A stretch of 64,000 nt of DNA from Desulfobulbaceae bacterium (GTDB lineage Bacteria; Desulfobacterota; Desulfobulbia; Desulfobulbales; SURF-16): positions 19,793 through 83,792 of the forward strand of contig QKJV01000098.1 of assembly GCA_003249165.1 (NCBI GenBank). Direction: 5' to 3'. Of this stretch, positions 1,207-45,780 are shown piece by piece (position 1 is the first letter of the stretch; each line of letters opens with the position of its first letter). The position numbers and the translations under genes were made by a program. The notes under the pieces were generated by a model. The model had not been told where the DNA came from. It saw only the letters and a list, made by a program, of their open reading frames with translations, and searched no databases.

Positions 1207-1219
1207 GAGGATTTTATAT

Positions 1220-6708: not shown

Positions 6709-9473
6709 GACCTCTCAAACTGACCATGTCTGCCTTTGGCTGTTATGCAGACAAACAGACCGTTGATTTTCAAACGCTTGGCAATGAAGGGCTATACCTC
6801 ATTACTGGTGATACTGGAGCGGGAAAAACAACCATATTCGATGCCATTACCTTCGCACTCTACGGGGAAACAAGCGGTGACAACAGGAAAGCAGAAATGC
6901 TGCGTAGCAAGTACGCACAAGAGAATGCAGAAACCTATGTTGAGCTTTCATTCCAATACCATGATAAGGTCTACCTTATCAAACGTAATCCGGCTTATGT
7001 GCGGGCAAAGCAACGTGGTGAAGGCACAACAGAGGAAAAGGCTGATGCCGAACTGCACCTACCAGACGACCGCATTGTGACGAAACTTAGAGAGGTCAAC
7101 ACCAAGGTCGAGGAAATACTCGGTATCAACCGTGAGCAGTTTGTCCAGATTGCGATGATAGCACAGGGTGAATTTCTGAAAGTCCTTCACGCCAGTACCG
7201 AAGACCGAATCGAGATATTCCGTAAGATTTTTTATACGGACGCCTACAAAACATTTCAAGACAGAGTTAAGAAGGACGCGAACGGACTCGTTGCAGAAAT
7301 CAAAGAGCAACGGCGCGGTTACGACTTTAGCCTCGGTAATGTTCAAGTAGATGCGAACGACGAAGAAAACACGCAAAAACTCTCCGATGCCAAGTCTGGG
7401 CTCTTATTGGCGGGTGATGTCATCGAATGGCTTACACTAATTATTTCTGCCGACGATGAAGCATTCTCCGCAAATGAGAAATTGTTGGAGAAAGTGGGCG
7501 TCAAACTGGCTGAAATAAACCAGAGGGTCGGGCAAGCCGAGCAGGATAAGAAAGCGCGTGACGCTTTAAAAGCTGCGGAAGACCGTCTCCCTTCTGAAAT
7601 GGCGGCTCAGAATGAAGCTGAATCCGTTTTAAACGCGGAAAAAGCTAAACAGCCTGAATACGAGTCCGTAAAAACTCAAATTTCTGAAATAGAGCGGTCG
7701 TTGACTAAATATCAGGAACTGCAAAATCTTATCGATTCGATAAAGTTAAACGAGGAAAAGTTATCTGTCGAAAAGCAAAATGCCGATAACTTACAAAAGA
7801 AACAAACCTCCGATACATCTGCGCTTAAGACCGCAAAAGAGGAACTCAAGTCTTTAGTGGATGCCGAAGTCATAGCCGAAACATTGCGTAGCCAACAAGG
7901 AAAGCTGACCACAAAGCAGAGCAGTATTGGTTCGTTAACCGCTTTGCTCGAAGGTTATAGCAGACTGCTTTCTGAACTCAAAGCGGCACAAGACGATTAC
8001 ACCGAAAAGTCTACAATTGCAAAGACTAAGCGGGATGGATATGAAACTCTTAACAAGGCGTATCTCGATGAGCAAGCGGGGATATTGGCAGTAGAACTGA
8101 AAGATGGACAACCCTGCCCAGTCTGCGGTTCTACCGAGCATCCTGATCCTGCGGTTTTATCTGTTAAGGCTCCTACAAAGGCGGAACTTGATAAGGCAAA
8201 GAAGGCCGCTGAGGCTGCAGAATCAGAAATGACTACTGCCAGTGGCTTGGCAAGCAACTTGAACGGGCAAAGCGGTACTAAGCGAGACGAAATCATAACC
8301 GCTGCAACGACGTTATTGGGAGAAATCTTGTTCGATAATATCCCGTCGGTTTTGGAGAGTGCGTTAACTGAGGTCAAAACAGGACTTGCGGAAGTCAATG
8401 AGAAACTCGCCGAGCAAGAGAAAAGAATAGCTCGAAAAAAGGAACTTGAAGAAGCGATACCTACTTCCGAGAGTAACCTTATTAAAGTCGGCGAGGCTCT
8501 TGGTAAGTCCAAAGAACAAGTCGCTGCACTGACCACGCAGATTGACGCCGACAGCAAAACAAGGGACAAGCAGGCAGCGGAACTCAAATTTAAGAATGAG
8601 GCAGATGCCAAAGCGGAAATCACCGCTCTCAGCACCAAAAAGAAAGGCTACGAAGATGCCCTCCAAACCGTCCAGACCGCATATGATACAGCAAAAACGA
8701 AAGTGAACGGCACAGCAACGGAGATACAAACATTGCAAGCACAGCTTGGTGATTCACAACCTTTGGATTTGGATGCACTAAAACAAGAAAAAGGCACTAT
8801 TGAAAGCACACAGCGTGGATTGGGCGAAATCAACCGTGTTGTCGGCACACGAAAGTCTGTCAACCAAACTGCGTTGAACGACATTAACAAAACGGCTAAA
8901 GCCATCATGGAGCTCGAAGTTCGTTACAAGTGGTTGAAAGAAATTTCCGACACAGCAAACGGAGATATTAGCGGCAAAGAAAAAATCAAACTGGAAACCT
9001 ATATCCAAGCAGCGTACTTCGACAGGATAATTGCGCGGGCAAATATTCGCCTTCTTCAGATGTCAAATAGCCAGTTCGAGTTAAAGCGGCGAGATGTAAG
9101 CGGCAAGCAGGGACAAAGCGGCTTAGACTTGAATGTCATTGACCACTACAATGGTACAGAACGCGATGCAAAAACGCTCTCAGGTGGTGAGTCGTTCATC
9201 GCCTCTCTGTCGCTTGCACTTGGTCTTTCGGATGAAATACAGAACAATGCTGGAGGCATACGTCTTGATTCGATGTTTGTTGATGAGGGCTTCGATTCAT
9301 TAGATGATACGAAACTGTCACAATCAATACAGGCGTTGATGAGTATATCGCAGACCAATCGCCTTGTTGGGATAATATCACATGTTACTGGGCTTGATGA
9401 AAAAATAGGTCGCAAAATCGTCGTGATCAAAGACCGTACGGGTGGTAGCAGAGCCGAAATACTGGTGGGATAA
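6705..9473 (+). CDS. sbcC: Exonuclease SbcC (Rad50-like ABC ATPase with zinc hook)
   Basis: Walker A GDTGAGKTT, long coiled coil, CPVCGSTEHP zinc hook, signature LSGGESF, Walker B MFVDEGFDSLD. Confidence 0.9.
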   Translation: MRPLKLTMSAFGCYADKQTVDFQTLGNEGLYLITGDTGAGKTTIFDAITFALYGETSGDNRKAEMLRSKYAQENAETYVELSFQYHDKVYLIKRNPAYVRAKQRGEGTTEEKADAELHLPDDRIVTKLREVNTKVEEILGINREQFVQIAMIAQGEFLKVLHASTEDRIEIFRKIFYTDAYKTFQDRVKKDANGLVAEIKEQRRGYDFSLGNVQVDANDEENTQKLSDAKSGLLLAGDVIEWLTLIISADDEAFSANEKLLEKVGVKLAEINQRVGQAEQDKKARDALKAAEDRLPSEMAAQNEAESVLNAEKAKQPEYESVKTQISEIERSLTKYQELQNLIDSIKLNEEKLSVEKQNADNLQKKQTSDTSALKTAKEELKSLVDAEVIAETLRSQQGKLTTKQSSIGSLTALLEGYSRLLSELKAAQDDYTEKSTIAKTKRDGYETLNKAYLDEQAGILAVELKDGQPCPVCGSTEHPDPAVLSVKAPTKAELDKAKKAAEAAESEMTTASGLASNLNGQSGTKRDEIITAATTLLGEILFDNIPSVLESALTEVKTGLAEVNEKLAEQEKRIARKKELEEAIPTSESNLIKVGEALGKSKEQVAALTTQIDADSKTRDKQAAELKFKNEADAKAEITALSTKKKGYEDALQTVQTAYDTAKTKVNGTATEIQTLQAQLGDSQPLDLDALKQEKGTIESTQRGLGEINRVVGTRKSVNQTALNDINKTAKAIMELEVRYKWLKEISDTANGDISGKEKIKLETYIQAAYFDRIIARANIRLLQMSNSQFELKRRDVSGKQGQSGLDLNVIDHYNGTERDAKTLSGGESFIASLSLALGLSDEIQNNAGGIRLDSMFVDEGFDSLDDTKLSQSIQALMSISQTNRLVGIISHVTGLDEKIGRKIVVIKDRTGGSRAEILVG

Positions 9474-9483
9474 GGAGATTTCT

Positions 9484-10809
9484 ATGTTTTACTGGAAAGG
9501 CAAGACTGAAAACAATCTGACATTGACTGAAGAACTGCTTTCATGTGGCTCAATTAAATCAATTCAAATAGCCACAGCTTTTATCTCCGCCGAAGGTGTT
9601 GCAATTGTGCGTCAACTCCTGGAGAAGTATCAGCTTTCAAAGGAACGCATCTTGCTCTATTTATCCGAGCAATTCTCGTCCGACAAACCGGGGGATTTGC
9701 TTGAACAGTTATTTGAAATTAGCACTGTAAAGGTTTTGTTTGACCAGAGCTTTCACGCCAAGGTGTTCTTGCTTTCCGGAGTAGAAACCAAACTTATTTA
9801 TGGCTCGTCGAATTTAACGGCGGGCGGTTTTACCCGAAACATGGAATTTGATTATATTGGAATACCCTCCAAAGAAGAATTAGAGAAAGTCCTTGAATTT
9901 TTCAGATATTGCGACAGGCTTTCAACTGCGGTCAGCAGTGAAGTGATAACTTACTATAAGGAACTGCAACCTGCACTTGATGAGTTAAATCAAACACAGT
10001 GGTTTCTAAAAAAACGTCTTACTGGTTTTTCTAAAAAAGAAGATCCATTTCGTGAAGATGATTATGATTTGTCAGACAGCTACTTTTCTTTTGAGGACTA
10101 CGAGACATTTTTTTCACGCAACGCTCAAAGTAACGATGCCCAAATCCGCCACCGTAGATTAAGCGTTCAACAAAAAATGCTTGCTGTCCACCAAATGATA
10201 TACCCTAAAATTAGAAGTCTTGGTATTGCACATCATAAACGAGAGAAAAATATCACTTCAACCGTCGAACCAAACATATATAACCACCATTCCGTGGGCT
10301 GGATTGGCGTTCGGTACGGGAAATTACCGCATGAGATTGACTGGCTTAACGCTGGACGCGAAAGTGATGACGATGCTTATGGCTTCCAAAAGCATGGTTG
10401 CTTACAATTCAGCATCAACAGTGGTGGGTTTGATATAAATCTGTTTTTAGCAGTTCGAAATGATGCGATAGACCGCATGAAACTCAGTGAGCATCAATTT
10501 AAAATGCTGTTTGAACAGCGCCCGCAGATTGAAACTGAAATGAGAAACCTTGTGGGACACGGCTTTGAATGGCGAATAGAAAATGGGGCAGAACCCTTTC
10601 GAGTTGATAACGACCCAGTCGAAAATTTCTGTGACTGGTTTAAGGTCAATGACTCGGATGGATACGAATCATATTTGATAAAATATTACGAGCCAGGCGA
10701 TCCGATATTAAAAAGCAAAGAGAGCATTTCCGCTGAGGTTATTCGTGTCATGACGATGCTCCAACCACTATATGACACTATGGTATGGCGGCCGCTGAAA
10801 AAGTCGTAG
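9484..10809 (+). CDS. PLD-family (single HKD) nuclease-like protein with an unknown ~270-aa C-terminal domain
   Basis: HAKVFLL...GSSNLTAGG is an HxK(x4)D...GSxN motif. I chose the internal ATG at 9484 (RBS ggaga, 10 nt after the sbcC stop) over the track start at 9442, which overlaps sbcC. Confidence 0.6.
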   Translation: MFYWKGKTENNLTLTEELLSCGSIKSIQIATAFISAEGVAIVRQLLEKYQLSKERILLYLSEQFSSDKPGDLLEQLFEISTVKVLFDQSFHAKVFLLSGVETKLIYGSSNLTAGGFTRNMEFDYIGIPSKEELEKVLEFFRYCDRLSTAVSSEVITYYKELQPALDELNQTQWFLKKRLTGFSKKEDPFREDDYDLSDSYFSFEDYETFFSRNAQSNDAQIRHRRLSVQQKMLAVHQMIYPKIRSLGIAHHKREKNITSTVEPNIYNHHSVGWIGVRYGKLPHEIDWLNAGRESDDDAYGFQKHGCLQFSINSGGFDINLFLAVRNDAIDRMKLSEHQFKMLFEQRPQIETEMRNLVGHGFEWRIENGAEPFRVDNDPVENFCDWFKVNDSDGYESYLIKYYEPGDPILKSKESISAEVIRVMTMLQPLYDTMVWRPLKKS

Positions 10810-11122
10810 GAGAAAGAATCAAATACCAACATGCGGTAAAAGTATCAACCTATTTTTGTTGGATGGAAAACCGATGGGGTGCATTGCATGCACTCTTGTC
10901 ATCTGGACTGGTGTAGTGTATTGAATTGCATAGGAAACTGACGGACACTGCAGGTTCGGTGTTTGAAGATAAGGAGCAAGGTCTCACTCGAAGTGCAAGA
11001 CGAAACCAATGACGGTTTCTCGCAGTAGGCTGTGCGGTCGGCGCCTGAAAACTGCCGGACGCTGCGGGTGCGTCAGAGCGGATTTGAGAAATTAAGCAAT
11101 TGCAGTACAGGAGGAAAGTTCA

Positions 11123-14098
11123 ATGGAATTCAAAAAGGAAGCCATAGGCAATAACTACTTAGCTTATTTTCCCGTAGTTGATGAGTTTCCAAGTGCAGAC
11201 GAAGTAGTCTGCACTTGGAAACAAAACGTCTTTGATTATGTTGTCGAAACAGAATCGACTAAAGGTTTTCGCGCCGCGCAGTTAGGCGCAATTTTTGCGG
11301 TAAAATCCCATTGGACTATTTCCGAAGCCCCTGTAACTGTTGTTATGCCGACCGGTACAGGAAAAACAGAAACTATGTTTGCAACAATTGTGTCTGAATG
11401 CCGTAAACGCACACTTATCGTTGTTCCCAGTAATTTACTTCGCCAACAGACTGTAGAGAGATGCTTAAAGTTAGAAAGGCTGCGTGAGTTCAACGCAATA
11501 AGTGATAAATGCCTTAACCCAGTTATCGCTTGTCTCAATTCATCTCCGACGAATAAGAATGAACTAAAAAACATTATCGAGAGAAGTAATGTTATTATTT
11601 CGACAGCTTCGCTTCTAAGCGGTTTTACTGACGAATATTTTAATGTCTTGTCTGAACTCTGCGATACATTGATTGTTGACGAAGCGCATCATACTCCTGC
11701 AAAATCGTGGCATAGAACAAAGCTGAAGTTTGCTGGTAGGCTTTGCATCCAGTTTACAGCTACACCATTTCGAGATGATGGGCAAAAAATTGACGGCAAG
11801 ATAATATATAACTTCCCATTGTCACTTGCCCAAAAACAAGGCTATTTCAAGCCAATTAACTTTTATCCGATTCTTGAGTTTGACTACGATAAAAAAGATT
11901 TAGCCATTGCTAATAAAGCTGTAGAAATTCTTGAAACTGATTTATCAAATGAATATCCCCATTTGCTCTTAGTTCGCGCGTCAACCAAAAAGCGAGCTGA
12001 AGAACTATATAATCTTTACTGTCAACATTTTGATAAGCACAGTCCAGTTCTTATCGTCAGTGGTCAAAAAGGAAATAAGCAGTCGATTGCCGATGCAAAA
12101 AGCGGAAAAGCAAAAATCATTGTTTGCGTAGATATGTTTGGAGAGGGCATAGACATTCCTCAATTGAAGATTTGCGCCATTCATGACAAGTATAAATCAA
12201 TTCCAATAACTATCCAGTTTATCGGGCGTTTTGCACGCTCGCAAGGCAATCTTGGTAATGCTTCGGTCGTAGCTAATATTGCAGATGATGATATCGAAGA
12301 TGCCTTGCAGGAATTGTATTCACAAGACGCGGATTGGAGCGAACTCCTAAAGAAAATTTCTGAAGATAAAATAAGCAAAGAGGAGCGGTTGCAAGAGTTA
12401 GTCAGAGACTTTACGGGAAAAGAAGAAATTCCTATTTCACAAATTCGACCCAAAGTCAGTATGTTTATGTATCATACTGACGACAAAAATTGGAATTGGG
12501 GGAACTGGGATTCAGTTTTCAATCCCGAACACAGTCATTGCTGTGTTAACCAAAAGGCTAAGATATTAATTATCACGGAACGCGATATAAGTTCTGTTGA
12601 CTGGACAACCAGTAAAGACATAGTTGACCTTACTTGGCAATTACACATTCTATACTGGAATGAAAAGAAGAAAGTCTTTTTCATCAACACTACCGACAAA
12701 GGATTAGCTGACCGTTTTGCCTCAGCAATATTTACTTCCAAGAAACGAAAAGCAGATGAAGATTTATTCAGATGCTTATCAGGTGTCAACCGACTAAAAC
12801 TTGCAACCGTAGGTCTGAAGCCTAAGAACGGAGGGCATATCAGGTATCAAATGTATGCCGGTATCGATGTAGAAGCTGGACTCACTGAAGCACAAAAAGT
12901 GAATGTGAGAAAGTCAAATCTATTCGGTGTAGGGTATGAAGACGGCAAAGATATTAGTATTGGGTGTTCTTATAAAGGTACTGTTTGGGCAAAGTGGGTA
13001 GAGACATTGGATTACTGGATTGAATGGTGTAATAAGGTGGCCGACAAAATTCTGGACAGCAGTATTAGCGTAGAGGAAATCTTAAAAGGCGCACTAATCC
13101 AAACCGTTGTCACGAGTCGACCTGACGCAGTACCATATGGAATTGACTTCCCTATCGAATTATATTTGAGCAGCTCATATTACTTAAAAGCTGGGGTCAT
13201 GGATGACTATCTGATAAACTTCGATATTGCATTAACAGTAGAAGATAACTCGTCACCACTAACCTTTTCGGTGTCAAATGGTCAAATGAGCGAGGAATTT
13301 ACTCTTGAAGTGTCAGATAAATATAGTGACGGTTTTATGGTGTCGCACAAAAGCGGGGATTTAATATTGGTAAGCGACAGGAAGAAGGAACGGTATTTAT
13401 CGGAATATTTCTGCGAAAACCCGCCTGAAATACGGTTTTGCGACCAGTCATCGCTTGATGGAAATCTATTAACGCGAGCAAAAATTCATGATACAAAATT
13501 TAGCAATGGCAACATCACTGTGCTTAACTGGGATGGGGTTGACATAAAGAAGGAATCACAATGGCAGACTGGCATAGGTGTAAAAGCAAATGATAGTATC
13601 CAATATAAAGTGATTTCTATGCTGAAATCAACGAATAAATATGCCGTTATATTTGATGATGATGACAAGGGCGAAATCGCCGATGTTGTTGCAATAATTG
13701 AAGAGCCAACAGCAATCAGGTTTGAATTGTACCATTGCAAGTTTTCTGGCGGAGGTGAAGCAGGCTTCCGAGTTAAGGATTTGTATGAGGTTTGCGGACA
13801 AGCGGAGAAGTGTGTGAACTGGTATCCTCGCATAGACAAACTTATAGACAGGTTGATTGAGAGAGAAAGCAAACGACTGTCAAAGCCGCAAGGTACTCGC
13901 TTCGAAGTAGGTGATGGCAAGACACTTCAATCGCTCAAAAAGAAACTTAAATTTTTTAGACCTGAATTTAGTGTATACATTGTACAGCCGGGTGTTGACA
14001 GCAAAAGAATAACACAACCTATGCACGATGTACTATGTAGTGCTTCATCTTATCTTAAAGAAACATATGCCATACAGTTGCAGCTGATTTGTTCTTGA
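11123..14098 (+). CDS. SF2 (DEAD/DEAH, ResIII-type) helicase fused to a C-terminal PD-(D/E)xK-like domain; single-protein helicase/nuclease architecture
   Basis: Motifs MPTGTGKTE (I), IVDEAHHTPA (II), FTATPFR (III), GEGIDIP (V), QFIGRFAR (VI). C-terminus has GEIADVVAI...FELYHCKFS. RBS aggagg. Confidence 0.6.
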   Translation: MEFKKEAIGNNYLAYFPVVDEFPSADEVVCTWKQNVFDYVVETESTKGFRAAQLGAIFAVKSHWTISEAPVTVVMPTGTGKTETMFATIVSECRKRTLIVVPSNLLRQQTVERCLKLERLREFNAISDKCLNPVIACLNSSPTNKNELKNIIERSNVIISTASLLSGFTDEYFNVLSELCDTLIVDEAHHTPAKSWHRTKLKFAGRLCIQFTATPFRDDGQKIDGKIIYNFPLSLAQKQGYFKPINFYPILEFDYDKKDLAIANKAVEILETDLSNEYPHLLLVRASTKKRAEELYNLYCQHFDKHSPVLIVSGQKGNKQSIADAKSGKAKIIVCVDMFGEGIDIPQLKICAIHDKYKSIPITIQFIGRFARSQGNLGNASVVANIADDDIEDALQELYSQDADWSELLKKISEDKISKEERLQELVRDFTGKEEIPISQIRPKVSMFMYHTDDKNWNWGNWDSVFNPEHSHCCVNQKAKILIITERDISSVDWTTSKDIVDLTWQLHILYWNEKKKVFFINTTDKGLADRFASAIFTSKKRKADEDLFRCLSGVNRLKLATVGLKPKNGGHIRYQMYAGIDVEAGLTEAQKVNVRKSNLFGVGYEDGKDISIGCSYKGTVWAKWVETLDYWIEWCNKVADKILDSSISVEEILKGALIQTVVTSRPDAVPYGIDFPIELYLSSSYYLKAGVMDDYLINFDIALTVEDNSSPLTFSVSNGQMSEEFTLEVSDKYSDGFMVSHKSGDLILVSDRKKERYLSEYFCENPPEIRFCDQSSLDGNLLTRAKIHDTKFSNGNITVLNWDGVDIKKESQWQTGIGVKANDSIQYKVISMLKSTNKYAVIFDDDDKGEIADVVAIIEEPTAIRFELYHCKFSGGGEAGFRVKDLYEVCGQAEKCVNWYPRIDKLIDRLIERESKRLSKPQGTRFEVGDGKTLQSLKKKLKFFRPEFSVYIVQPGVDSKRITQPMHDVLCSASSYLKETYAIQLQLICS

Positions 14099-14237
14099 TC
14101 GCTAAAATCAAAAGAACATCAGAATTTAGAAAATTCGCTGCGAAGGACAATCAGCGATAAGGGTGTCCAACTTTTAACGATTTGCATTCGGGTGGTGGAT
14201 TTTATCAATATGGTAGGACATGAACCTGTACGATATA

Positions 14238-14418
14238 ATTGACTTGTTTCCCAGAACGGATAAAAGCATAAAAGTTCAGTGGACATGTTTCCACGCACGG
14301 ATAATGCCCATAAAAACCACTATCGACATATTCCCACGAACAGAAAATCAGCAAAACACATACCAGACATCAATCTGATGCTATCGTTCCACGTTGAGAC
14401 GGTCGTATTGATAACAAG
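14238..14418. repeat. Copy 1 of a ~180-bp direct repeat (partner at 41702-41881)
   Basis: Hand alignment gives roughly 80 percent identity, higher in the 3-prime half. Contains three TTCC(N2-3)GAACGGA-like motifs (14246, 14287, 14330) and the palindrome CATCAATCTGATG (14368-14380). Confidence 0.85.
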
Positions 14419-14984
14419 GGTTAACAAGCAAGTGTAGTAAGAAGCCTGTAAACAAAGGCTTTCAAAGGTTTGAGAGTGAAAAATCGAAGTGATAAAAACG
14501 TGAAAATATCTGTTCGCGGGAACAAGTCCAAAGTCATGATTTTGAACGTGACAGAGCGATTTAGATGTCGGTGCTTAGTGAGTGGTTGGGAATGGTGTGC
14601 AGCGCTACGCTGATGTCCTCGGCAAGCTGCTTTCTCTGCTTGCCTGTGATGTTGTAGGGTATTGTCATTTTCATGTAAAAATCCTCCGTTCTTTTAATCT
14701 TCTTAAAAGGCTGTCGCGTTTTGCGACTCCCTTTGCTCGATGGGCTGTACCAATGGACGCTGAACACTTCGTTCACCGTTCCGGTCAGCCCGGTTCCTTC
14801 TTTTCGGTATGTGTATATTCGCTCTGAATGCACAGAATAGCAAGTCATTTTCGAGAGATGTATCAGAAAATTAAAAGTTTTCCGCAGGACATTTTCTTAT
14901 AATGTGCGAAACAGTATTGTATTTTGAGATATTTTGTGCTATTATATAGTTTAGATTATTGTGTATTAAGGCTGGAGGCGTAAT

Positions 14985-15280: not shown

Positions 15281-16453
15281 ATGGCGCAACTTGCCGAAAT
15301 CATCAAGTATGAAGGAGATAATTCTACCTTCATATGGAAGCATCCTTGTGAGGACTTCAACACAACTACACAGTTGATTGTTCATGAGTCGCAGGAAGCG
15401 ATATTCTTTATGAACGGTCAGGCGTTAGATTTGTTTGGAGCGGGTCGGTACACGCTCGAAACCGAAAATATCCCGCTCATCAAGAAGTTTCTCAACAAAC
15501 CGACAGGCGACAAAACGCCGTTTCATTGCGAAGTCTATTTCATCAATAAGACCGAGCAGATGGCGATTCGCTGGGGAACCGACAGCAAGGTGCAGTATGT
15601 AGAACCTACATATAAATTCCCGCTTTCCATTGGTGCAAGCGGTGAAATGGCTCTTTCTGTTGACGATTCGCGAAAACTACTCGTCAGACTCGTTGGCACG
15701 GAGCGTGTTTTGGAACAACCAAAGCTGGTGGCTTTCTTCCGGGCTTTCCTGATGACGAAGGTAAAAACCTACATTGCACAAACAATGAAAGCCAGTGCTA
15801 TCAATATATTTGAGATTGACGAGCATCTAGAGAGCTTCTCCACGGAAATCAGGGAACGCCTGATTAAAGACTTCTCGGATTACGGTGTTGCACTGAAACG
15901 CTTCTTCGTCACCACGATTGTGAAGCCGGACGGTGACCCTACATATGAGAAGTTCAAGGATTTGCATTACAGGCAATACGCCGATGTTGCTGAAGCCCAA
16001 CTTCAACAGAGAGTAGGCATCATCGAACAGCAAACCGAAGCCCAGCGTATGGTGATTGAGGCTCAGGGAATCGCACAAAAGCGAACTACCGAAGGTTACT
16101 CCTACCAGCAAGAGCGTGGATTCGATGTTGCTGAAAAGGTTGCCGCAAACGAAGGTGCTGGGAACTTCAGCAGTGCAGGAATCGGATTAGGCATGATGGC
16201 TGGAATCGGTGGTGCGGTCGGCGGCGCAGTAAGTGGCACCTTCAATGAAGCATTCGCTTCGATTGGAACGCCGAACGCTTCCGCTCCTAATCGGTTCTGT
16301 GACGCTTGTGGTGAGGAAATCACCCCCGGCGCGGCATTCTGCGATAATTGCGGAACTCAGCTAAGTTTACCTGATGTGTGCAATAAATGCGGGTTCAAGT
16401 TCATCAAGCCCGGCAAATTCTGCCCTAAATGCGGCACAAAGAGGGAGGGATAA
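15281..16453 (+). CDS. SPFH/band-7 family protein with a C-terminal double zinc ribbon (COG4260/YdjI-like)
   Basis: N-terminal IIKYEGDNSTFIWKHPCEDFNTTTQLIVHESQEAIFF is SPFH-like. Gly-rich linker. C-terminus has CDACG...CDNCG...CNKCG...CPKCG. Confidence 0.75.
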   Translation: MAQLAEIIKYEGDNSTFIWKHPCEDFNTTTQLIVHESQEAIFFMNGQALDLFGAGRYTLETENIPLIKKFLNKPTGDKTPFHCEVYFINKTEQMAIRWGTDSKVQYVEPTYKFPLSIGASGEMALSVDDSRKLLVRLVGTERVLEQPKLVAFFRAFLMTKVKTYIAQTMKASAINIFEIDEHLESFSTEIRERLIKDFSDYGVALKRFFVTTIVKPDGDPTYEKFKDLHYRQYADVAEAQLQQRVGIIEQQTEAQRMVIEAQGIAQKRTTEGYSYQQERGFDVAEKVAANEGAGNFSSAGIGLGMMAGIGGAVGGAVSGTFNEAFASIGTPNASAPNRFCDACGEEITPGAAFCDNCGTQLSLPDVCNKCGFKFIKPGKFCPKCGTKREG

Positions 16454-16456
16454 AGA

Positions 16457-17131
16457 ATGTCGAAGAATAAAAAGTTAGGGTACATAGTATTAGCCATATC
16501 GTTTGTCCTTTTCAATGTTATCGCGTTCGCAGTTCCGACAGACAAGACTTCCGCATTTTGGATCGCGTATGCCTTTACAGTAATCGCTTTTTCGGCACAG
16601 ATATTTATATGGAATCTGGCATTCAGCAAGGCTGGAACACTCAAAAGTAAATTCTTAGGGTTACCAATAATCCATGTTGGTATTGTTTATCTGATAATCC
16701 AGCTAGTCGCATTCGGTGTATTCTTAGCTCTTCCGTGGATTGCAAACTGGATTTCGATAATCAGTTGTGCCGTTATTCTCGGAGGTTCTGGAATTTGCTT
16801 GATAACTTCAGAGGTTGGGAGAGAAGAAATTGCACGGGTAGAAGAAAAGGTTCAGCGCAAGATTTCAGCAATCAAGGGCTTGCAAGCTGATGTTGAATTG
16901 ATTGCCGAGACGCAATCAGATGCCGCCGCAAAAGAGGCTCTCGAAGCCCTCGCGGATAAACTTAAATACAGTGATCCGATGAGCGACGATTCACTGGTTC
17001 CTATTGAAGATAATATTAGCGCAAAAATAACCTCTCTGAAAACTCAGCCAACAGCCGACATTTTGAACTCGGTTAAGCAAATAGAAATGTTGCTGTTGGA
17101 ACGAAATAATAAATCAAAGCTATTGAAATAG
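16457..17131 (+). CDS. Four-TM membrane protein with a helical cytoplasmic tail
   Basis: Four hydrophobic segments in the first ~115 aa. Starts 3 nt after the SPFH gene stop. Confidence 0.6.
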   Translation: MSKNKKLGYIVLAISFVLFNVIAFAVPTDKTSAFWIAYAFTVIAFSAQIFIWNLAFSKAGTLKSKFLGLPIIHVGIVYLIIQLVAFGVFLALPWIANWISIISCAVILGGSGICLITSEVGREEIARVEEKVQRKISAIKGLQADVELIAETQSDAAAKEALEALADKLKYSDPMSDDSLVPIEDNISAKITSLKTQPTADILNSVKQIEMLLLERNNKSKLLK

Positions 17132-17143
17132 GAGGGAATAACT

Positions 17144-18436
17144 ATGGCGGCACTTGTTTGCGATATTTGTGGAGGCAAATTGACAATGGGTTCCGGCGGC
17201 ATCGCGGTTTGCGATAGCTGTGGGATGGAGCACACTAAAGAACGTATGCAGGAGAAAGTTCAAGAGATAAAAGGTACTGTCCGTATAGATAACTCTCATA
17301 TGACTGACAGCTGGATGAAAATGGGTCATGCTGCGGCATCTGCGGGCAACCATAAAGAAGCATATGAATATTTCACTAAGGTAATAGAAGTTGATTCGGA
17401 AAATTGGCGTGCTATATATGAGAAAGGTAAAGCGGGTGCTTGGCAGTCTACGCTCGGCAACTTGCGAACCTCTGAAATTTACCAAGGCATTACATTGGCT
17501 CTTGAAATTATAAATCGCTCCAATTTGACAGAAGCCGAAGTTGTTGACTTAAAGAATGAGTTTGCCGTTGCTCTATTTAATATTAACAACGCCATTACAG
17601 ATTTAATGGAACAAAATCTATCCGAGTTAAATGATAAATATTTTGATTCGCATTGGGATCAAATGTGGAATACAAGACAGCGTTACCTCACAAATGTAGA
17701 GCAGTTGGAAGATGCATTAAGTTTGATTAGTGACTTAGAAGATGATTTGTCAAAAGGGAATGTTATCGAATTTAAGAAGAGAATGTGTGCAGACTTAAAA
17801 AACGCCTGCGAATCAATTCAATATTGGACGGATTACTCAGAATCGTCGTTAGGCTACTTGGGCTTCTCAGCATCCGAAAAACAAATATATTTGGATAAAT
17901 TTTGGAGTCTGGCAGATGATATTCGGTTAGTTGAGCCAGATTATGCCACAACGAAATACAGTCAACCGGATCCGTTTAATGCGGGATATGAATCTAACCG
18001 TGCGGATAGAATTATGCAATATTGGCAGAAGCAAGATGATGAAAGGCGATTGAAGAAAAAGAGAGAAGCACAAGAAAAACGATTCACAGAATACTGGAAT
18101 GCACACCCAGAAGAAAAGGCAATGCTTGAAGCTGAAGCTCAAAGCCTTACCCAACAGATAGTCGTACTTAACACGGAAATCAACAACGTTCCCGGGAAAG
18201 CGGAAATTACGAATATACAGGGCAGAATAAGCAAACTAAAGACCGACAAGGACGCTCTGAGTATCTTCAAAGGCAAAGAGAAGAAAGCTATTCAGGAGCA
18301 AATCGATGCTGCTACTTCGGAACTTAATGGTGTGCAGTCACGCCGCAATGCCGCTATCGAGGATATAAATCGGAAAATTGCTCCTTTGGAAAAGCGCAAA
18401 GTGGCAATTGCGGAAGAGTTTACCAAAGATAGATGA
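17144..18436 (+). CDS. N-terminal zinc-ribbon protein with TPR-like and coiled-coil regions (YdjG-like role proposed)
   Basis: MAALVCDICGGKL...CDSCGMEH zinc ribbon. HKEAYEYFTKVIEVDSENWRAIYEKG is TPR-like. K/E-rich coiled-coil C-terminus. RBS ggaggg. Confidence 0.5.
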   Translation: MAALVCDICGGKLTMGSGGIAVCDSCGMEHTKERMQEKVQEIKGTVRIDNSHMTDSWMKMGHAAASAGNHKEAYEYFTKVIEVDSENWRAIYEKGKAGAWQSTLGNLRTSEIYQGITLALEIINRSNLTEAEVVDLKNEFAVALFNINNAITDLMEQNLSELNDKYFDSHWDQMWNTRQRYLTNVEQLEDALSLISDLEDDLSKGNVIEFKKRMCADLKNACESIQYWTDYSESSLGYLGFSASEKQIYLDKFWSLADDIRLVEPDYATTKYSQPDPFNAGYESNRADRIMQYWQKQDDERRLKKKREAQEKRFTEYWNAHPEEKAMLEAEAQSLTQQIVVLNTEINNVPGKAEITNIQGRISKLKTDKDALSIFKGKEKKAIQEQIDAATSELNGVQSRRNAAIEDINRKIAPLEKRKVAIAEEFTKDR

Positions 18437-23600: not shown

Positions 23601-25877
23601 ATGACGCCAAAAATGTCATCCGCAATCAAAAAAATAACGCTCAATACCCCCACCTTCAACGGAGACGTGGTTGAGCCGACATTTATTAATTTCTTTTACG
23701 GCAGAAACGGCGCTGGCAAATCCACGATAGCACAGGCTATCGGCGCAAATACCGGCCTACTTTGGCAGGACGGCAAGTCAGCGGCGGATTATGATATTTT
23801 GGTTTATGACCAAGACTTCATCAACAACAACCTGCAGAATTACGGGAACCTCGCAGGCGTGTTTACTGTATGTGATACAAATATCGAAATTCAAAAACAG
23901 GTGGAACAGAAAACGGCTGAAAGAGCCTCATTTGATGAGCAGTACCGTACTCTTACCACTGCAGCGGGAAGCAAACAGGATGCTATGACCGCCTCTTTGA
24001 GCACTTTTCAGAATGCTTGTTGGGAAAAGTCGAAGTCGATTCGGGACGCATTCGATGAGGCGATGAAGGGCAAAAAGCGAATTAACTTGTTCGCAGAATC
24101 TGTTTTATCCGTTCCGACACCCGCTGAGCATGACTTAGCCGCGCTGAAAAAAATGTACGATATTGCATTCGATACTTCAGCAACAGTATATAAGCTCTTT
24201 TCCAGAGCTGGCAGCTCCACCACATATGGAAAGTTACCCGGAAAAGACCTCATGGATAAAGCCATTGTAGGTAGTAGTGAGTCAACATTCACGGCATTTA
24301 TGAAGGCCCTTCATGCAACCGACTGGGTACGGCAAGGACACGATCACTATGTGGCTGGAGCCGACGGAAAATGTCCGTTCTGCCAGCAGAAACTACCGGC
24401 GGGTTTTGATGATGAAATTGCGGCTTGTTTTGATGCACAGTACCAGCAAGACATTGACGATATTACGGAATTTCAAGCTACATATTCACGTGAGACGGGT
24501 GCCATTTTAGACACGCTCCAAACAAACCTGCAGGATGTGCTTGCTACCGTAGATTTGGTGGAATACAAGGATAAAATTGCACTATTAAAAAGCAGTATCG
24601 AAATCAACAAGCAGCGCATCTCCGGTAAAGTTAAGGAACCCACCTCTATCGTGGCGCTTGAGGATACGGATTCACTGCTCATAGAAATAGGCACTCTCAT
24701 TGATGATATCAACCGCCAGATCAAGGCCAACAACGATGTCGTAAATGACAAGAAGGCGAAAAAGGCAGCTTGTGTCAATCAGGTGTGGGAGCATCTTGCT
24801 TTCATGTTGAGCCGTGATGTCGCTACTTATAAGGCTGAACAGGCAAAGCTAAAAAAAGAAGCTGATGACCTGACAGCCAAAGCGACTGCTGCACGTCGCG
24901 CTTTTAATGCCGCAACGGGCGATATTGCCGAACTTAACAAACAGGTAGTCAATACCCAAGCAGCTATTGCCAGCATAAACGCTTTACTAAAAGACTCCGG
25001 ATTTCAAGGCTTCAGCCTCCGTGAGAAGACGGGAGTTCCGAATGTGTATGAGGTTGTACGTGAAGACGGAAGCATTGCGGTAAAGTTGAGTGAAGGTGAG
25101 CGTAATTTTATTGCATTTTTGTACTTCTACAACCTTGTTCGTGGCAGCCATAGCAGCGAAGAAGTAAAGGACAAAATCGTGGTTATCGACGACCCGGTTT
25201 CCAGTATGGACAGCAACACACTGTTTATTGTTAGTGCTATCATTCGAGAAATGGTCGAAGTTTGCTATAACAACACCGACTATCGCGACAACACGGTTCA
25301 GGGCGACTACATCAAACAGATATTCATTCTGACGCACAATGTGTATTTTCATAGGGAGATTACCTATCGGCAGGTCAGTCGCTACAAGAGCGTGTCATTT
25401 TACATGATACATAAAACAGACAACGTGTCGACAGTCAAGCTCTGTGACAAAGAGAGTGAAGGATGTCCGACTGAAAAAGAAAATTACAACCCGGTTCAAA
25501 ACTCATATGCGGCTCTGTGGGATGAATTCAGAGTATTGAAGTCCACAATACCGCTGCTCAATGTAATACGGCGTATTTTGGAGTATTATTTTCTGCAGCT
25601 TTGCGGATACGAGGGAACGGACATCCGTAAGGTTGTTTTGGAAAAGAACAAAGATAAATTTGTCACCCCGGTGGAAGGCGGTCAGCCGGATTATGAGAAA
25701 TACCAGCTGGCTTCGTCGATGCTGACATATATCAATAACCCGCAGGGTATCAGCGATGGTTTGAACTATGTCGAAGATTGCGTCGATGCCGGGCAATACA
25801 AAACAGTTTTCAAGCTTATCTTTGATTCGCTTGGACAGATACAGCATTACAATATGATGATGGGGCAAGAGGCATAA
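23601..25877 (+). CDS. AAA_13-type ABC ATPase with a coiled-coil CxxC hook and a PrrC/RloC-like C-terminal domain (putative anticodon nuclease)
   Basis: Walker A GRNGAGKST, coiled-coil insert with KCPFCQQ, LSEGERNF signature, Walker B VVIDDPVSSMD, H-loop LTHN. C-terminal NVIRRILEYYF resembles the R-x3-E of PrrC-type ACNase. Sits directly upstream of hsdM. Confidence 0.55.
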   Translation: MTPKMSSAIKKITLNTPTFNGDVVEPTFINFFYGRNGAGKSTIAQAIGANTGLLWQDGKSAADYDILVYDQDFINNNLQNYGNLAGVFTVCDTNIEIQKQVEQKTAERASFDEQYRTLTTAAGSKQDAMTASLSTFQNACWEKSKSIRDAFDEAMKGKKRINLFAESVLSVPTPAEHDLAALKKMYDIAFDTSATVYKLFSRAGSSTTYGKLPGKDLMDKAIVGSSESTFTAFMKALHATDWVRQGHDHYVAGADGKCPFCQQKLPAGFDDEIAACFDAQYQQDIDDITEFQATYSRETGAILDTLQTNLQDVLATVDLVEYKDKIALLKSSIEINKQRISGKVKEPTSIVALEDTDSLLIEIGTLIDDINRQIKANNDVVNDKKAKKAACVNQVWEHLAFMLSRDVATYKAEQAKLKKEADDLTAKATAARRAFNAATGDIAELNKQVVNTQAAIASINALLKDSGFQGFSLREKTGVPNVYEVVREDGSIAVKLSEGERNFIAFLYFYNLVRGSHSSEEVKDKIVVIDDPVSSMDSNTLFIVSAIIREMVEVCYNNTDYRDNTVQGDYIKQIFILTHNVYFHREITYRQVSRYKSVSFYMIHKTDNVSTVKLCDKESEGCPTEKENYNPVQNSYAALWDEFRVLKSTIPLLNVIRRILEYYFLQLCGYEGTDIRKVVLEKNKDKFVTPVEGGQPDYEKYQLASSMLTYINNPQGISDGLNYVEDCVDAGQYKTVFKLIFDSLGQIQHYNMMMGQEA

Positions 25878-39752: not shown

Positions 39753-39789
39753 TAAGAGATGATCGTAGCCTACTGCGTAAGGAGAAAAT

Positions 39790-41550
39790 ATGAGTATTAT
39801 AAAACATAATTTATTGCCCAAGCAAAAGTCGCGTAAAAACCATCTTGAAGTTGAGGTAGATTTATATCCTTACGCATCAGAGCTATATGACGAATTGAAT
39901 TCTTTGGGAATAATTCAAAGAATGAAAGAAATACCCCAGTTGGGAGTTATCAAGGTTCCGAAAAAGCTTGAAAAAAGCAGATACGATTATGTAATGCTGC
40001 AATTGTACTTGCATCAGCTTATTAAAAATAAATTACAGAGTCAGTTAAGACTGACATATAACAATCCGGTAAAATCTTATGAATTCAGGCCTGATTACCA
40101 TTACAATACAAAAGAAGACAAGCCAACTATCGGTGATGTCCTTCAGCTACTTACAATCGTGTATAACATCGGCCATTTTTATAATACATTTACATCCTCA
40201 CGAGCAGTCACAATGATGGCCACCGAAGATGATACATTTAAGAAAATGATTGTATCTGCTTCGACTGACAATAAATATGCACCTGTTGTAAATAAGCTAC
40301 TTACAGACAATGATTATCAACACTTTCACCTGATAAATTCTATTTTGATTTTGGAGCATTGCGACCAAGCTAAACAATCAGTAATACTGGCAAAGGAAAT
40401 ATTATATGCATACATAAACGAGAAGAGTTTACCCACTGAGAGTAAACTCGCATATGCATTTTCAGTTTTTAGAAATGTCCGCACCGTATCCTATATGGCG
40501 TATGATTTACAAATTGCCAACACACCGCTTACTATAGATTTGTGTAATCAAGACGCCGTTCTGGTTTTGCTCAGGGAATTATTGTCAGAATATAACAATA
40601 GCAGGTCTTCATCCAGACTTATCGAATCAGTTAGCAAATTGCTGGATGATACGGTGTATAACGAAAACTCAAATGCTATCTGCTATTATAAAATATCAAG
40701 GAAAATCGTTTCATTCCTTCAAAGGAAAGAGTACTTCGAGGAAAGAAAATATTTCGATGATTTTTTTCTCAATAGAACGAGTTTATTAAATTGTTCCTAT
40801 TCACACAATAGAGATTACGTACAAGAGGCAATATTAAAGATTACTTTTCAACGAAGTGAAAGACATATATCTGAGGATACTTTTTTCACACTTGAACGCA
40901 TTAATAATACTCGTGTTGGGTATTATGATCGACATACTGGTGAGCAAACGATACTGGTTTCTCTTAAAAAACATTGCGCTTCAAAGACTGCTGCTGCTCT
41001 TCATGTATTAAGAACCGTAGTAGGTGCTCTGAGAAAAATTGAAGGTATCGCGCCAAATGATATCCGTTTTTTGCTATGCGTTAAATTCTTCTTGTTCTAT
41101 TTATTTAACGAAAATCCTGTTTTGATTAAGCCAACAATCGATGAACACACCTGCGTTATATGTACAAGAGGAAAAAACAGTCGAATAACTGAAGTCAAAA
41201 AACTTCTCAATGATGGGTGTGGAAATCCAGATCAAAATCATGAAGCGGCATTTATGGTTAATTGCTTAGAAGAAGATAAGCTGAATGATACTACAATATG
41301 TGTCCCCGCAAGTATAGTAGTTTATCAAAAAGATGCCGTTGGCCGAAAACTCTGTGAATTTGATGGAATCGTTATACGTCCTATGCGAAAGCAGAAACAA
41401 GTATTATTTCTTGAAGCTAAAAACACTACAGATAAGCCTTCACTTGCAAAAAATTGCTTAATCGAAAAATTAGATAAATTGTCATTTTCATATTCAGCAA
41501 CTGATATCCAGACAGTTAATTATGATGCAGAATTAGAAGTTACAATCTAA
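39790..41550 (+). CDS. Hypothetical 586-aa protein: degenerate HD-like N-terminus plus C-terminal PD-(D/E)xK-like motif
   Basis: RMKEIPQLGVIKVPKKLEKSRYDYVMLQ and VYNIGHF mimic the layout of SAMHD1/dGTPase-type HD domains but lack the His/Asp residues. C-terminal EFDGIVI...LFLEAKN. The sequence looks very AT-rich in hand-counted stretches. Confidence 0.4.
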   Translation: MSIIKHNLLPKQKSRKNHLEVEVDLYPYASELYDELNSLGIIQRMKEIPQLGVIKVPKKLEKSRYDYVMLQLYLHQLIKNKLQSQLRLTYNNPVKSYEFRPDYHYNTKEDKPTIGDVLQLLTIVYNIGHFYNTFTSSRAVTMMATEDDTFKKMIVSASTDNKYAPVVNKLLTDNDYQHFHLINSILILEHCDQAKQSVILAKEILYAYINEKSLPTESKLAYAFSVFRNVRTVSYMAYDLQIANTPLTIDLCNQDAVLVLLRELLSEYNNSRSSSRLIESVSKLLDDTVYNENSNAICYYKISRKIVSFLQRKEYFEERKYFDDFFLNRTSLLNCSYSHNRDYVQEAILKITFQRSERHISEDTFFTLERINNTRVGYYDRHTGEQTILVSLKKHCASKTAAALHVLRTVVGALRKIEGIAPNDIRFLLCVKFFLFYLFNENPVLIKPTIDEHTCVICTRGKNSRITEVKKLLNDGCGNPDQNHEAAFMVNCLEEDKLNDTTICVPASIVVYQKDAVGRKLCEFDGIVIRPMRKQKQVLFLEAKNTTDKPSLAKNCLIEKLDKLSFSYSATDIQTVNYDAELEVTI

Positions 41551-41578: not shown

Positions 41579-41627
41579 CGCTAACGATTTATACTTGCGC
41601 TAACGAAACCTAAACCTGCGCTAACGA
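41579..41627. repeat. Three phased direct repeats of CGCTAACGA (~20-bp spacing)
   Basis: CGCTAACGA at 41579, 41598 and 41619. Located 30 nt after the stop of the 586-aa ORF and upstream of repeat copy 2. Confidence 0.7.
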
Positions 41628-41701
41628 TTTATCCGGCAAATGAACACTGTATCAAAATTATCAGCCTTTGCCAACGGAGGCGGCGAGACTCTAACCCTAT
41701 T

Positions 41702-41881
41702 ATTGACTTGTTTCCGAGAACGGATTAAAACAAAATAAAAGTGTGGATATATTTCCACGAACGGAGATTATCCCAAAAACCATCATCGACCTATTCCCGA
41801 GAACGATAAATCAGCAAACCACATACCAGACATCAATATGATGCTATCGTTCCATGTGGAGAGTGTTGTATTGATAACAAG
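41702..41881. repeat. Copy 2 of the ~180-bp direct repeat (partner at 14238-14418)
   Basis: Same order of three TTCC(N2-3)GAACGGA-like motifs (41710, 41751, 41793) and the palindrome CATCAATATGATG (41831-41843). Confidence 0.85.
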
Positions 41882-42118
41882 AAAAGATAGGTAAATGTTT
41901 AGAAAGCCTTGAAATAAAGGGGTTTCGAGGATAGGGTAGAAACTCTGGCTCTCGGATTTTTTTGCTGCCACCTCCTCCATCTCACCAAGCCATAGGAAAG
42001 TTAAGTAGCAAATATAATATATATTTATATAGCAAAGAGAAAAATATATATTATACATTGAAATGTTTATACAAATTTGATATACTTAATTCAAACCAAT
42101 AACAGGGGAGTAAGGACG

Positions 42119-45382: not shown

Positions 45383-45780
45383 ATACCCCTCTCAAACAGC
45401 CTCTCTCTGTTAGTAAAAGTGAAAGGGTAAAAAAGAACCCTTTCAAAAGTCCCACGAAGTGAGACTATGGTAACTTTAAAACTGAATAACAGCATCAGAA
45501 ATACGTTAATCTCACAGCCGGTATAAAATCTCGGCAGCCACCGAAGAATTACGCTTGCGATAAATTTTTCTTCAGCCTTTGAATAGCTTTCAAAGTCGGC
45601 GATGAAATGTGAGAGGATAATGATACTTCCGCCCAGCCACAGAATCAACCAATGGGGGCGGCTCTGGGAGAACCTCAGAGAGATGAGAAGTCTATGAGAT
45701 AAAAAAGCTATTTATCGTTTCTGATGTTCCGCCGTAACGGATGTTGAGGACAAATATTACGGTGGCAAAACGAAATTATC

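Follow-up and report, generated by a model that had tools for sequence, protein, structure and literature searches.

What is the role of the last gene in a long run of bacterial defence genes, when that gene matches nothing in the curated databases? This question is raised by a protein of 586 amino acids (aa) encoded on contig QKJV01000098.1 of a Desulfobulbaceae bacterium, in a stretch of 64,000 nucleotides (nt) that we analyzed as a whole and refer to as the window. Its gene is a real and intact open reading frame (ORF) of ~1.8 kb in the ORF listing of this 64-kb window (39790..41550, + strand, ATG start), and the product is a member of a large unnamed family of ~580-aa proteins. A two-module architecture is well supported for this family: an N-terminal pseudo-HD domain of the SAMHD1 type is joined to a C-terminal region that carries the signature of a PD-(D/E)xK nuclease. 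A first-pass annotation, made from the letters of the window, had read an HD-like domain and a nuclease-like C-terminus in one gene. That combination is supported, while the sensing and defence roles attached to it, as well as the function we propose below, stay predictions.

The family is sizeable. Among the candidates scored, homologues of the 586-aa protein form at least 419 clusters at 90% identity; at 50% identity there are 339 representatives, 94 of which lie below E 1e-30. Almost all members measure 570-620 aa, and those that have been named are called 'hypothetical protein'. Neither the 586-aa protein, nor a profile of 67 members, nor a profile of the C-terminus gives a significant match in Pfam, NCBIfam, PHROGs, PADLOC or the PDB sequences. 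Pfam and NCBIfam, curated HD and HD_assoc models included, have no significant match for the protein or for any of the 67 homologues, the homologues carry zero precomputed Pfam domains, and a homologue search seeded with the distant branch of the family returned no annotated relative. Nothing in the literature searched describes a nuclease joined to an inactive HD domain, or SAMHD1 in combination with PDDEXK. The family is thus undescribed, its architecture having no curated family, defence-system model or publication in the literature searched. Conservation was assessed on an alignment of 67 full-length members with identities down to 18%. Nine columns are invariant (67/67), namely G52, G128, T133, R231, D239, E485, D525, E542 and K544, and about twenty more are conserved at 90% or above, including L51, R64, Y67, Q71, Q119, N126, H129, F134, E523, G526 and P531. 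The full-length AlphaFold2 model built from this alignment has a mean predicted local distance difference test (pLDDT) score of 94.9 and a predicted template modeling (TM) score of 0.91.

The N-terminal module and its key positions are located as follows:

39865..40779, + strand: pseudo-HD domain, residues ~26-330, mostly helical, assigned to the SAMHD1 type by hhalign and Foldseek.
39937..39945, + strand: Q50-L51-G52, which corresponds to the substrate-pocket motif 'KQLG' of the SAMHD1 type and aligns to the QLG/QTG of SAMHD1-like proteins.
39979..39990, + strand: R64-Y-D-Y67, counterpart of R-F-E-H, retaining the phosphate-binding Arg but with Tyr in place of the first metal His.
40162..40176, + strand: Y125-N126-I-G128-H129, counterpart of H-D-x-G-H, in which the HD dyad has become Y/x-N and GH is kept.
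40480..40506, + strand: R231-x3-Y235-x3-D239, counterpart of D311-x3-Y315-x3-D319, with the register taken from the hhalign comparison of the distant branch.

As a SAMHD1-like reference we used four bacterial proteins carrying the Pfam domain HD_assoc_2, which come from a phylum-wide genome sample; HD_assoc_2 was not found in the 61 genomes of the class-level sample. Using hhalign, residues 1-340 of the family align with these four proteins over 221 columns (P 6.5e-5), and in the distant branch, from Priestia and hosts like it, the N-terminus does so over 282 columns (P 5.9e-7, probability 92%), with P 0.12-0.9 for the controls of reversed templates and unrelated profiles. In the case of the full-length model, the sole standout of a Foldseek search of the PDB is human SAMHD1 (9ec2_B; E 6.9e-3, probability 1.00, 501 columns, TM score of 0.49 normalized to the target), and the other matches among the top twenty have a probability of at most 0.11. 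The motifs of the distant branch ('...RL....QLG.LR.V..GAHHTRYEYV' and 'N.GHLP.TF') can be laid beside those of the SAMHD1-like proteins ('RLR.IKQLG......P....H.RFEHSLG' and 'HD.GH.PF.H'), and the 586-aa protein itself carries R44-M-K46-E-I48-P-Q50-L51-G52, R64-Y-D-Y67 and N126-I-G-H129. The SAMHD1/dGTPase-type spacing that had been read from the window is borne out by these hhalign values, and by SAMHD1 being the top structural match of the N-terminal fold.

The metal site is lost throughout the family. In SAMHD1 the metal ligands are H167, H206, D207 and D311, and alanine substitution of metal-site residues abolishes restriction activity (PMC4592219, which also describes the residue roles, including that of R164). 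The corresponding H...HD...D tetrad is replaced at all four positions: H167 by Y67 (66/67), H206 by Y125 at a variable position, D207 by N126 (61/67) and D311 by R231 (67/67). The replacement of metal-binding His and Asp residues, as claimed in the first-pass annotation, therefore extends across the 67 homologues. Much of the substrate pocket is retained. The phosphate-binding R164 has its equivalent in R64 (62/67), the active-site H210 in H129 (65/67) and the phosphate-binding Y315 in Y235 (Y or F in 62/67), and the QLG motif is kept with Q in 56/67, L in 63/67 and G in 67/67. The counterpart of D319 is retained as well (D239, 67/67), and we take this residue to be one of the phosphate-contacting residues of the pocket. 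The Leu of QLG is the equivalent of SAMHD1 L150, a sugar-discriminating residue (PMC5207538).

We consider it highly probable that the N-terminal domain is a true relative of the SAMHD1-type HD deoxynucleoside triphosphate (dNTP) hydrolases that has lost its metal site and kept much of its pocket. With Y67, Y125/N126 and R231 at the positions of the four metal ligands, this domain would not be expected to hydrolyze dNTPs. One could argue that the domain is still enzymatic and acts on nucleotides via a Tyr/Asn/Arg/His site, either metal-independent or differently metallated, since H129, H180, N126, Y67 and R231 are conserved beyond the need of a mere scaffold. Yet, all four metal-site residues of the HD superfamily are gone in every member, and the alanine substitutions mentioned above show what their loss does to SAMHD1; such residual catalysis is highly improbable. 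A binding pocket without hydrolysis, in which the side chain of the invariant R231 may stand in for the metal in holding phosphate, is the reading we retain for this domain.

The remainder of the protein comprises a middle region and the putative nuclease:

40807..41214, + strand: middle alpha/beta region, residues ~340-475, with the secondary structure taken from the models.
41215..41547, + strand: putative PD-(D/E)xK nuclease domain, residues 476-586 (~110 aa), assigned by the invariant E/D/ExK, the layout and weak profile matches.
41242..41244, + strand: codon of E485, an invariant Glu on helix alpha-1 that aligns with the Glu of the Mrr 'FE-L' helix.
41356..41364, + strand: codons of E523-F-D525, with D in 67/67 and E in 64/67, aligned on the Asp of NERD 'IDH' and Mrr 'GiDG'.
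41413..41421, + strand: codons of E542-A-K544, both E and K in 67/67, aligned on NERD 'ETK' and Mrr 'QxK'.

In the middle region C455, C458 and G461 are conserved in closer homologues, and Foldseek finds only weak matches to a ferredoxin-like sub-domain. The evidence for the C-terminal domain starts from four charged residues, E485, D525, E542 and K544, which are invariant in the 67 full-length sequences and in 40 C-terminal fragments. The motifs read E523-F-D525-G-I-V-I followed by L-F-L-E542-A-K544-N, with D525 and E542 16 residues apart. The D...E-x-K pattern proposed earlier is thus strengthened, including by the Glu on an upstream helix (E485), and the alignment of the 67 members shows these residues conserved alongside the loss of the HD residues; the spacer between EFDGIVI and LFLEAKN, given earlier as 13 residues, has to be corrected to 9. 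The motifs are embedded in a helix at 480-495 (H484-E485), a hairpin at 501-505/508-512, a long kinked strand at 520-529 (E523-x-D525), a strand at 538-542 leading into E542-A-K544, a helix at 552-563 and two strands at 574-584. The full model (pLDDT 94.9) and a second one built for residues 340-586 (pLDDT 97.5) share this layout, which by secondary-structure order is that of an alpha-beta-beta-beta-alpha-beta core: helix 1 carries the Glu, strand 2 the Asp and strand 3 the ExK.

The profile matches are weak and fall in the same superfamily. In a permissive Pfam scan of the 40 C-terminal fragments, the families with the best E-values among those matched by more than one fragment are HamA (0.0016), Card1_endonuc (0.0035) and NERD (0.012), all of them PD-(D/E)xK families and all sub-threshold. 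Comparison by hhalign of the C-terminus with a NERD alignment from related genomes gives P 6.6e-4 and places 'EFDGlI' on 'qIDHivI' and 'flEAK' on 'viETK', and comparison with 29 Mrr catalytic domains (Mrr_cat) gives P 0.019 with three motif elements in register. As a yardstick, NERD and Mrr_cat, both accepted members of the superfamily, reach only P 0.02 when compared with each other. It is likely that the C-terminal ~110 aa constitute a minimal Mrr/NERD-like PD-(D/E)xK nuclease, for which we predict nuclease activity from sequence. Alternatively, the C-terminal half might be another alpha/beta module that binds a ligand or protein, and the whole protein a non-catalytic regulator or adaptor of the adjoining restriction enzymes. 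This would be in line with the failure of Foldseek to find a PD-(D/E)xK structure despite the pLDDT of 97.5, with the sub-threshold scores of all nuclease-family hidden Markov models and with the position of the gene, very often 17-31 nt past that of a restriction subunit. It sits badly with four charged residues that are absolutely invariant at canonical spacing and secondary-structure placement, with weak matches that recur in one clan exclusively and with NERD and Mrr alignments that are in register. A specific protein partner is further contradicted by near-identical copies that follow unrelated restriction types or none, and we judge the adaptor distinctly unlikely.

The putative nuclease is found in the company of restriction genes in other genomes as well. 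Homologous loci were collected, with an alignment of 16 closer sequences. Of 16 distinct context types, 11 have a co-oriented restriction gene immediately upstream, as do 21 of the 35 loci examined, with gaps of 17-120 nt to the family gene. The upstream genes are:

Type ISP enzyme of ~1,570 aa (ResIII + Eco57I), co-oriented, gap of 18-120 nt: L001-4, L015, L017, L019 and L022.
Type III Res, co-oriented, gap of 17 nt: L005-9.
Type I HsdR, co-oriented: L012, L025 and L037.
GmrSD, co-oriented: L011.
Eco57I-type methylase, co-oriented: L029.
ResIII/DEAD helicase, co-oriented: L039.

In the distant branch the neighbours are integrases, Mrr, AbiTii, an ABC-type AAA_15/21 gene and T5orf172. The contexts of both the window and the homologues are restriction and defence islands, which agrees with the defence architecture suggested in the first-pass annotation. 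Downstream of the family gene there are mostly housekeeping genes, often on the opposite strand, or an integrase; the family gene therefore typically closes the inserted cassette, and it does so in the window too. In the type III loci L005-L009 the gene that comes 66 nt after the family gene (~9833-10810) codes for 325 aa with a T1RH-like_C domain (PF11867) and could be a further accessory gene.

The restriction partner varies. The copy behind the type III Res of L005 is 88% identical to the copy behind the type ISP enzyme of L001. The L015 copy (8001-9755), which lies behind a type ISP enzyme in an Erysipelotrichales-like metagenome-assembled genome (MAG; Candidatus Fimiplasma), is 93% identical at the protein level to the L021 copy (8001-9755) of a Succinivibrio MAG (Gammaproteobacteria), which has no restriction neighbour. 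This 93% identity indicates a recent transfer between phyla. As copies with 88-93% identity have different partners and occur in different phyla, the family gene is an independent module moving between restriction cassettes and phyla. A dedicated partner of a single restriction type was considered and discarded, given that, among copies of 88-93% identity, the preceding gene may be type III, type ISP or not a restriction gene at all. Hosts include Bacillota of many classes, Succinivibrio, Bacteroides, Raoultibacter and Leptolinea, and the gene was found in none of 200 other species genomes of the order of the present host. It was not found in the PLSDB plasmids or the INPHARED phages, and in IMG/VR it occurs in 3 of 2.9 million viral contigs, each time near the contig end. 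A separate observation concerns L095 (Bacillota; 1045-3375, - strand), which encodes a 776-aa protein with a kinase-like N-terminal half, as judged by eye, and a SAMHD1-like HD domain in which the first His and the HD dyad can be seen to be preserved.

Such mobility also raises the possibility of a selfish or maintenance function of integrative elements outside defence, for instance an addiction toxin, or a nuclease active in recombination or processing, hitch-hiking beside restriction cassettes. The loci do carry integrases, serine recombinases and primase-polymerases, the gene sits at insert edges (in the window near repeats and iterons), and its distribution is extremely patchy and crosses phyla. 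The constant partners, on the other hand, are restriction and defence genes rather than any single recombinase or replication module, no conserved antitoxin-like small gene was seen beside the family gene, and next to nothing of the family turns up in the plasmid and phage collections, apart from the three viral contigs mentioned. A function of this kind appears quite improbable.

We return to defence. Our preferred explanation, which as a whole we regard as finely balanced, is that the protein is a self-contained, horizontally mobile, restriction-linked defence nuclease under the control of a dead nucleotide pocket. Of its parts, we lean towards the defence role and consider the nucleotide-gated mechanism less likely than not. 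The N-terminal module (~330 residues) most probably descends from the SAMHD1-type HD dNTP triphosphohydrolases and has kept the pocket residues for base and sugar (QLG) and for phosphates (R64, Y235, D239, H129). As the metal ligands have been lost while these pocket residues have been kept, we infer that the pseudo-HD domain most likely binds, but does not hydrolyze, either a nucleotide-like ligand or the end of a nucleic acid. The C-terminal module is predicted to cut via E485, D525, E542 and K544. Occupancy of the pocket, or a SAMHD1-like oligomerization driven by it, would license the nuclease. Travelling at the end of restriction cassettes and probably co-transcribed with them, the gene would most likely provide an extra anti-phage or anti-plasmid layer on top of the accompanying restriction system.

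A more specific version, which we think unlikely in its entirety, presents the SAMHD1-derived pseudo-enzyme as an intracellular nucleotide sensor that switches on the fused nuclease. Here, the invariant Arg at the former metal site would allow a (deoxy)nucleoside triphosphate to be bound and left uncleaved. The ligand could be a non-canonical dNTP made by the phage, or the signal could be the surge or collapse of dNTPs during infection, and ligand-driven oligomerization in the style of SAMHD1 would activate the nuclease.

The pseudo-HD domain might also dispense with small-molecule sensing. The protein would then be a type IV-like or otherwise DNA-directed endonuclease, whose pseudo-HD domain reads DNA or a modified base, or scaffolds oligomers. 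Like type IV enzymes it is an orphan nuclease without a dedicated methyltransferase of its own, it keeps company with McrBC, GmrSD and other restriction genes, and its nuclease core is Mrr/NERD-like; in addition, SAMHD1 itself binds single-stranded nucleic acids (PMC4513882). Against this, the pocket residues that have been kept are those that hold the base, sugar and phosphates of a mononucleotide in SAMHD1, an invariant Arg in place of a metal ligand suits phosphate binding in a closed pocket better than the reading of a duplex, and no known reader fold was detected by Pfam or Foldseek. We rate this DNA-directed alternative as rather unlikely.

Several observations weigh against the preferred explanation of a pocket-controlled defence nuclease. 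With respect to the N-terminus, Foldseek recovered one SAMHD1 chain only, at E 6.9e-3, and the profile of Dgt-type dGTPases from relatives of the host gives no signal with the family by hhalign. With respect to the C-terminus, the NERD alignment has an HH probability of 27% and its reversed control reaches P 0.013; a Foldseek search with residues 340-586 has best E-values of 0.044 (PDB) and 0.027 (BFVD), and no nuclease appears in the top 50. The structural check suggested along with the first-pass annotation thus recovered the SAMHD1-like fold of the N-terminal part and no nuclease match for the C-terminal half. Furthermore, about a quarter of the loci have no adjoining restriction gene. Finally, when the 67 members were compared with PADLOC-DB 2.0.0, no system-protein model was matched, the only matches being isolated and non-recurrent at E-values of 8e-4 or higher; since PADLOC models do not match, a precedent for defence appears to be lacking.

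The immediate flanks of the gene in the window comprise the following elements:

39780..39784, + strand: Shine-Dalgarno sequence AGGAG, 5 nt before the ATG of the 586-aa gene, read from the sequence.
41579..41627, + strand: three CGCTAACGA iterons, 3' of the stop codon of the 586-aa gene, listed as context.
41698-41926, + strand: copy 2 of a repeat of ~230 nt, 76% identical to copy 1 at 14234-14463.

The gene encoding a vWA protein ends 37 nt upstream, and no convincing sigma-70 promoter or + strand terminator was found in the spacer between the two. Inside this spacer (39753-39789) the base composition breaks sharply: the vWA gene has a GC content of 51.5% and a GC content at third codon positions (GC3) of 63%, compared to 34.4% and 30% for the 586-aa gene, and the DNA downstream is at 36% GC. 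This break suggests that the vWA gene and the 586-aa gene are two pieces that were acquired separately and joined at the 37-nt spacer. The CGCTAACGA iterons start at 41579, 41598 and 41619, i.e., 19 and 21 nt apart. Three matches compare with 0.34 expected, the motif is absent from the rest of the window, and none of 100 shuffles contains three or more matches. No further ORF lies between the 586-aa gene and repeat copy 2. The AT-richness of the gene, its position as the last gene before repeat copy 2 and the iterons 3' of it had all been pointed out in the first pass and are confirmed by these values.

The 586-aa gene closes a long run of defence genes. The first part of this block has an SbcC-like ATPase, a PLD protein and a ResIII helicase, and is followed by an SPFH/TPR block; the second part has a PrrC-type AAA_13 gene, type I HsdM/S/R, EVE-McrB and McrC. 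Nearest to the 586-aa gene are a macro-HTH gene, a membrane gene and the vWA gene, and the restriction genes of the window lie beyond this three-gene module. The option that the 586-aa gene belongs to the macro/membrane/vWA module was rejected on the basis of the sharp GC break and of the fact that vWA or macro genes stand beside zero homologues. Each copy of the ~230-nt repeat comes after the final gene of a different defence block, copy 1 after a ResIII helicase gene that ends at 14098 and copy 2 after the 586-aa gene, and each contains three TTTCC...ACGGA-like boxes. The repeat may mark the boundaries of cassettes, as a site of recombination or regulation.

Some other parts of the window deserve mention in their own right. 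At 6705-14098, upstream of repeat copy 1, three genes in a row code for an SbcC/Rad50-like AAA_23 ATPase of 922 aa, a PLD-domain protein of 455 aa and a ResIII/DEAD helicase of 991 aa, and they form another candidate multi-gene defence system. Just past repeat copy 1 (15281-18436), an SPFH/Band-7 protein whose C-terminus carries a double zinc ribbon is encoded ahead of a 224-aa protein without Pfam match and a TPR protein. A 758-aa AAA_13 protein (PF13166, E 2e-123; 23601-25877) directly precedes hsdM of the type I system. AAA_13 is the Pfam family that contains PrrC/RloC-type proteins, and the arrangement resembles a PrrC-like linkage to a restriction-modification (R-M) locus. In the downstream mobile element, the Rfam pemK RNA motif (45617-45697, 60 bits) lies upstream of a MazF/PemK-type gene.

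Single-protein genes that combine a sensor and a nuclease recur in bacterial immunity, and the sensed signal is usually unknown. For the present family, the ancestry of the putative sensor together with its pattern of inactivation (ligands lost, pocket kept, Arg in place of Asp) leads to a concrete and testable idea of the ligand. If true, the sensor version would represent the first SAMHD1 scaffold that serves as an immune sensor rather than an effector, and restriction cassettes would gain a fallback of their own for phages that escape or block restriction. A compact, confidently predicted and phylum-crossing family is in any case a practical candidate for studies on new one-gene defence and on restriction back-up. 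Even if the protein turns out to be ordinary, an annotation gap would be filled for several hundred clusters of 'hypothetical proteins' of gut and environmental bacteria.

Among the known systems, SAMHD1 and its bacterial relatives are closest in descent. The helical domain is homologous, the elements RL-x-I-x-QLG, R-[FY]-[ED]-x, x-x-G-H and x3-Y-x3-D occur in equal order and spacing, SAMHD1 is the best structural match, and both stand in an immune context. The family differs by the replaced metal ligands, the lack of a Pfam HD/HD_assoc match and the addition of an alpha/beta region and a nuclease-like C-terminus. SAMHD1-type dNTPases are immune effectors from bacteria to humans. Tal and colleagues are said to have described dGTPase genes of anti-phage defence in 2022; the family differs from the Dgt dGTPases in having no match to the profile of that subfamily. 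At the other end of the protein, the E...D...ExK signature on an alpha-beta-beta-beta-alpha-beta unit is shared with NERD, HamA (Hachiman), Card1-type and Mrr nucleases, as are a weak but exclusive sequence and profile similarity and a nuclease fused to or paired with a sensor module. Unlike in those families, a gathering threshold is never reached and a Foldseek structural match is absent, and a pseudo-HD sensor partner has not been described for them. Reader domains of type IV enzymes (SRA, EVE, YTH and similar) have no match in the 586-aa protein by Pfam.

With regard to function, PrrC/RloC offers the nearest comparison. PrrC is a latent nuclease within a type Ic R-M locus; inhibition of the restriction enzyme by a phage peptide switches PrrC on, and it requires GTP hydrolysis and dTTP (PMC1484252). 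The domain plan is different: PrrC has ABC-ATPase and RNase domains, whereas a Pfam search of the 586-aa protein gives no AAA_13 or ABC match, and the family gene stands behind many kinds of restriction gene as well as on its own. Because the folds are unrelated, PrrC is an analogy and not a sign of membership. Nevertheless, both are physically linked to restriction genes, and both would unite in one polypeptide an N-terminal nucleotide-binding regulatory module (predicted here) and a C-terminal nuclease (putative here), so that PrrC may be taken as the closest functional analogy for how the 586-aa protein works.

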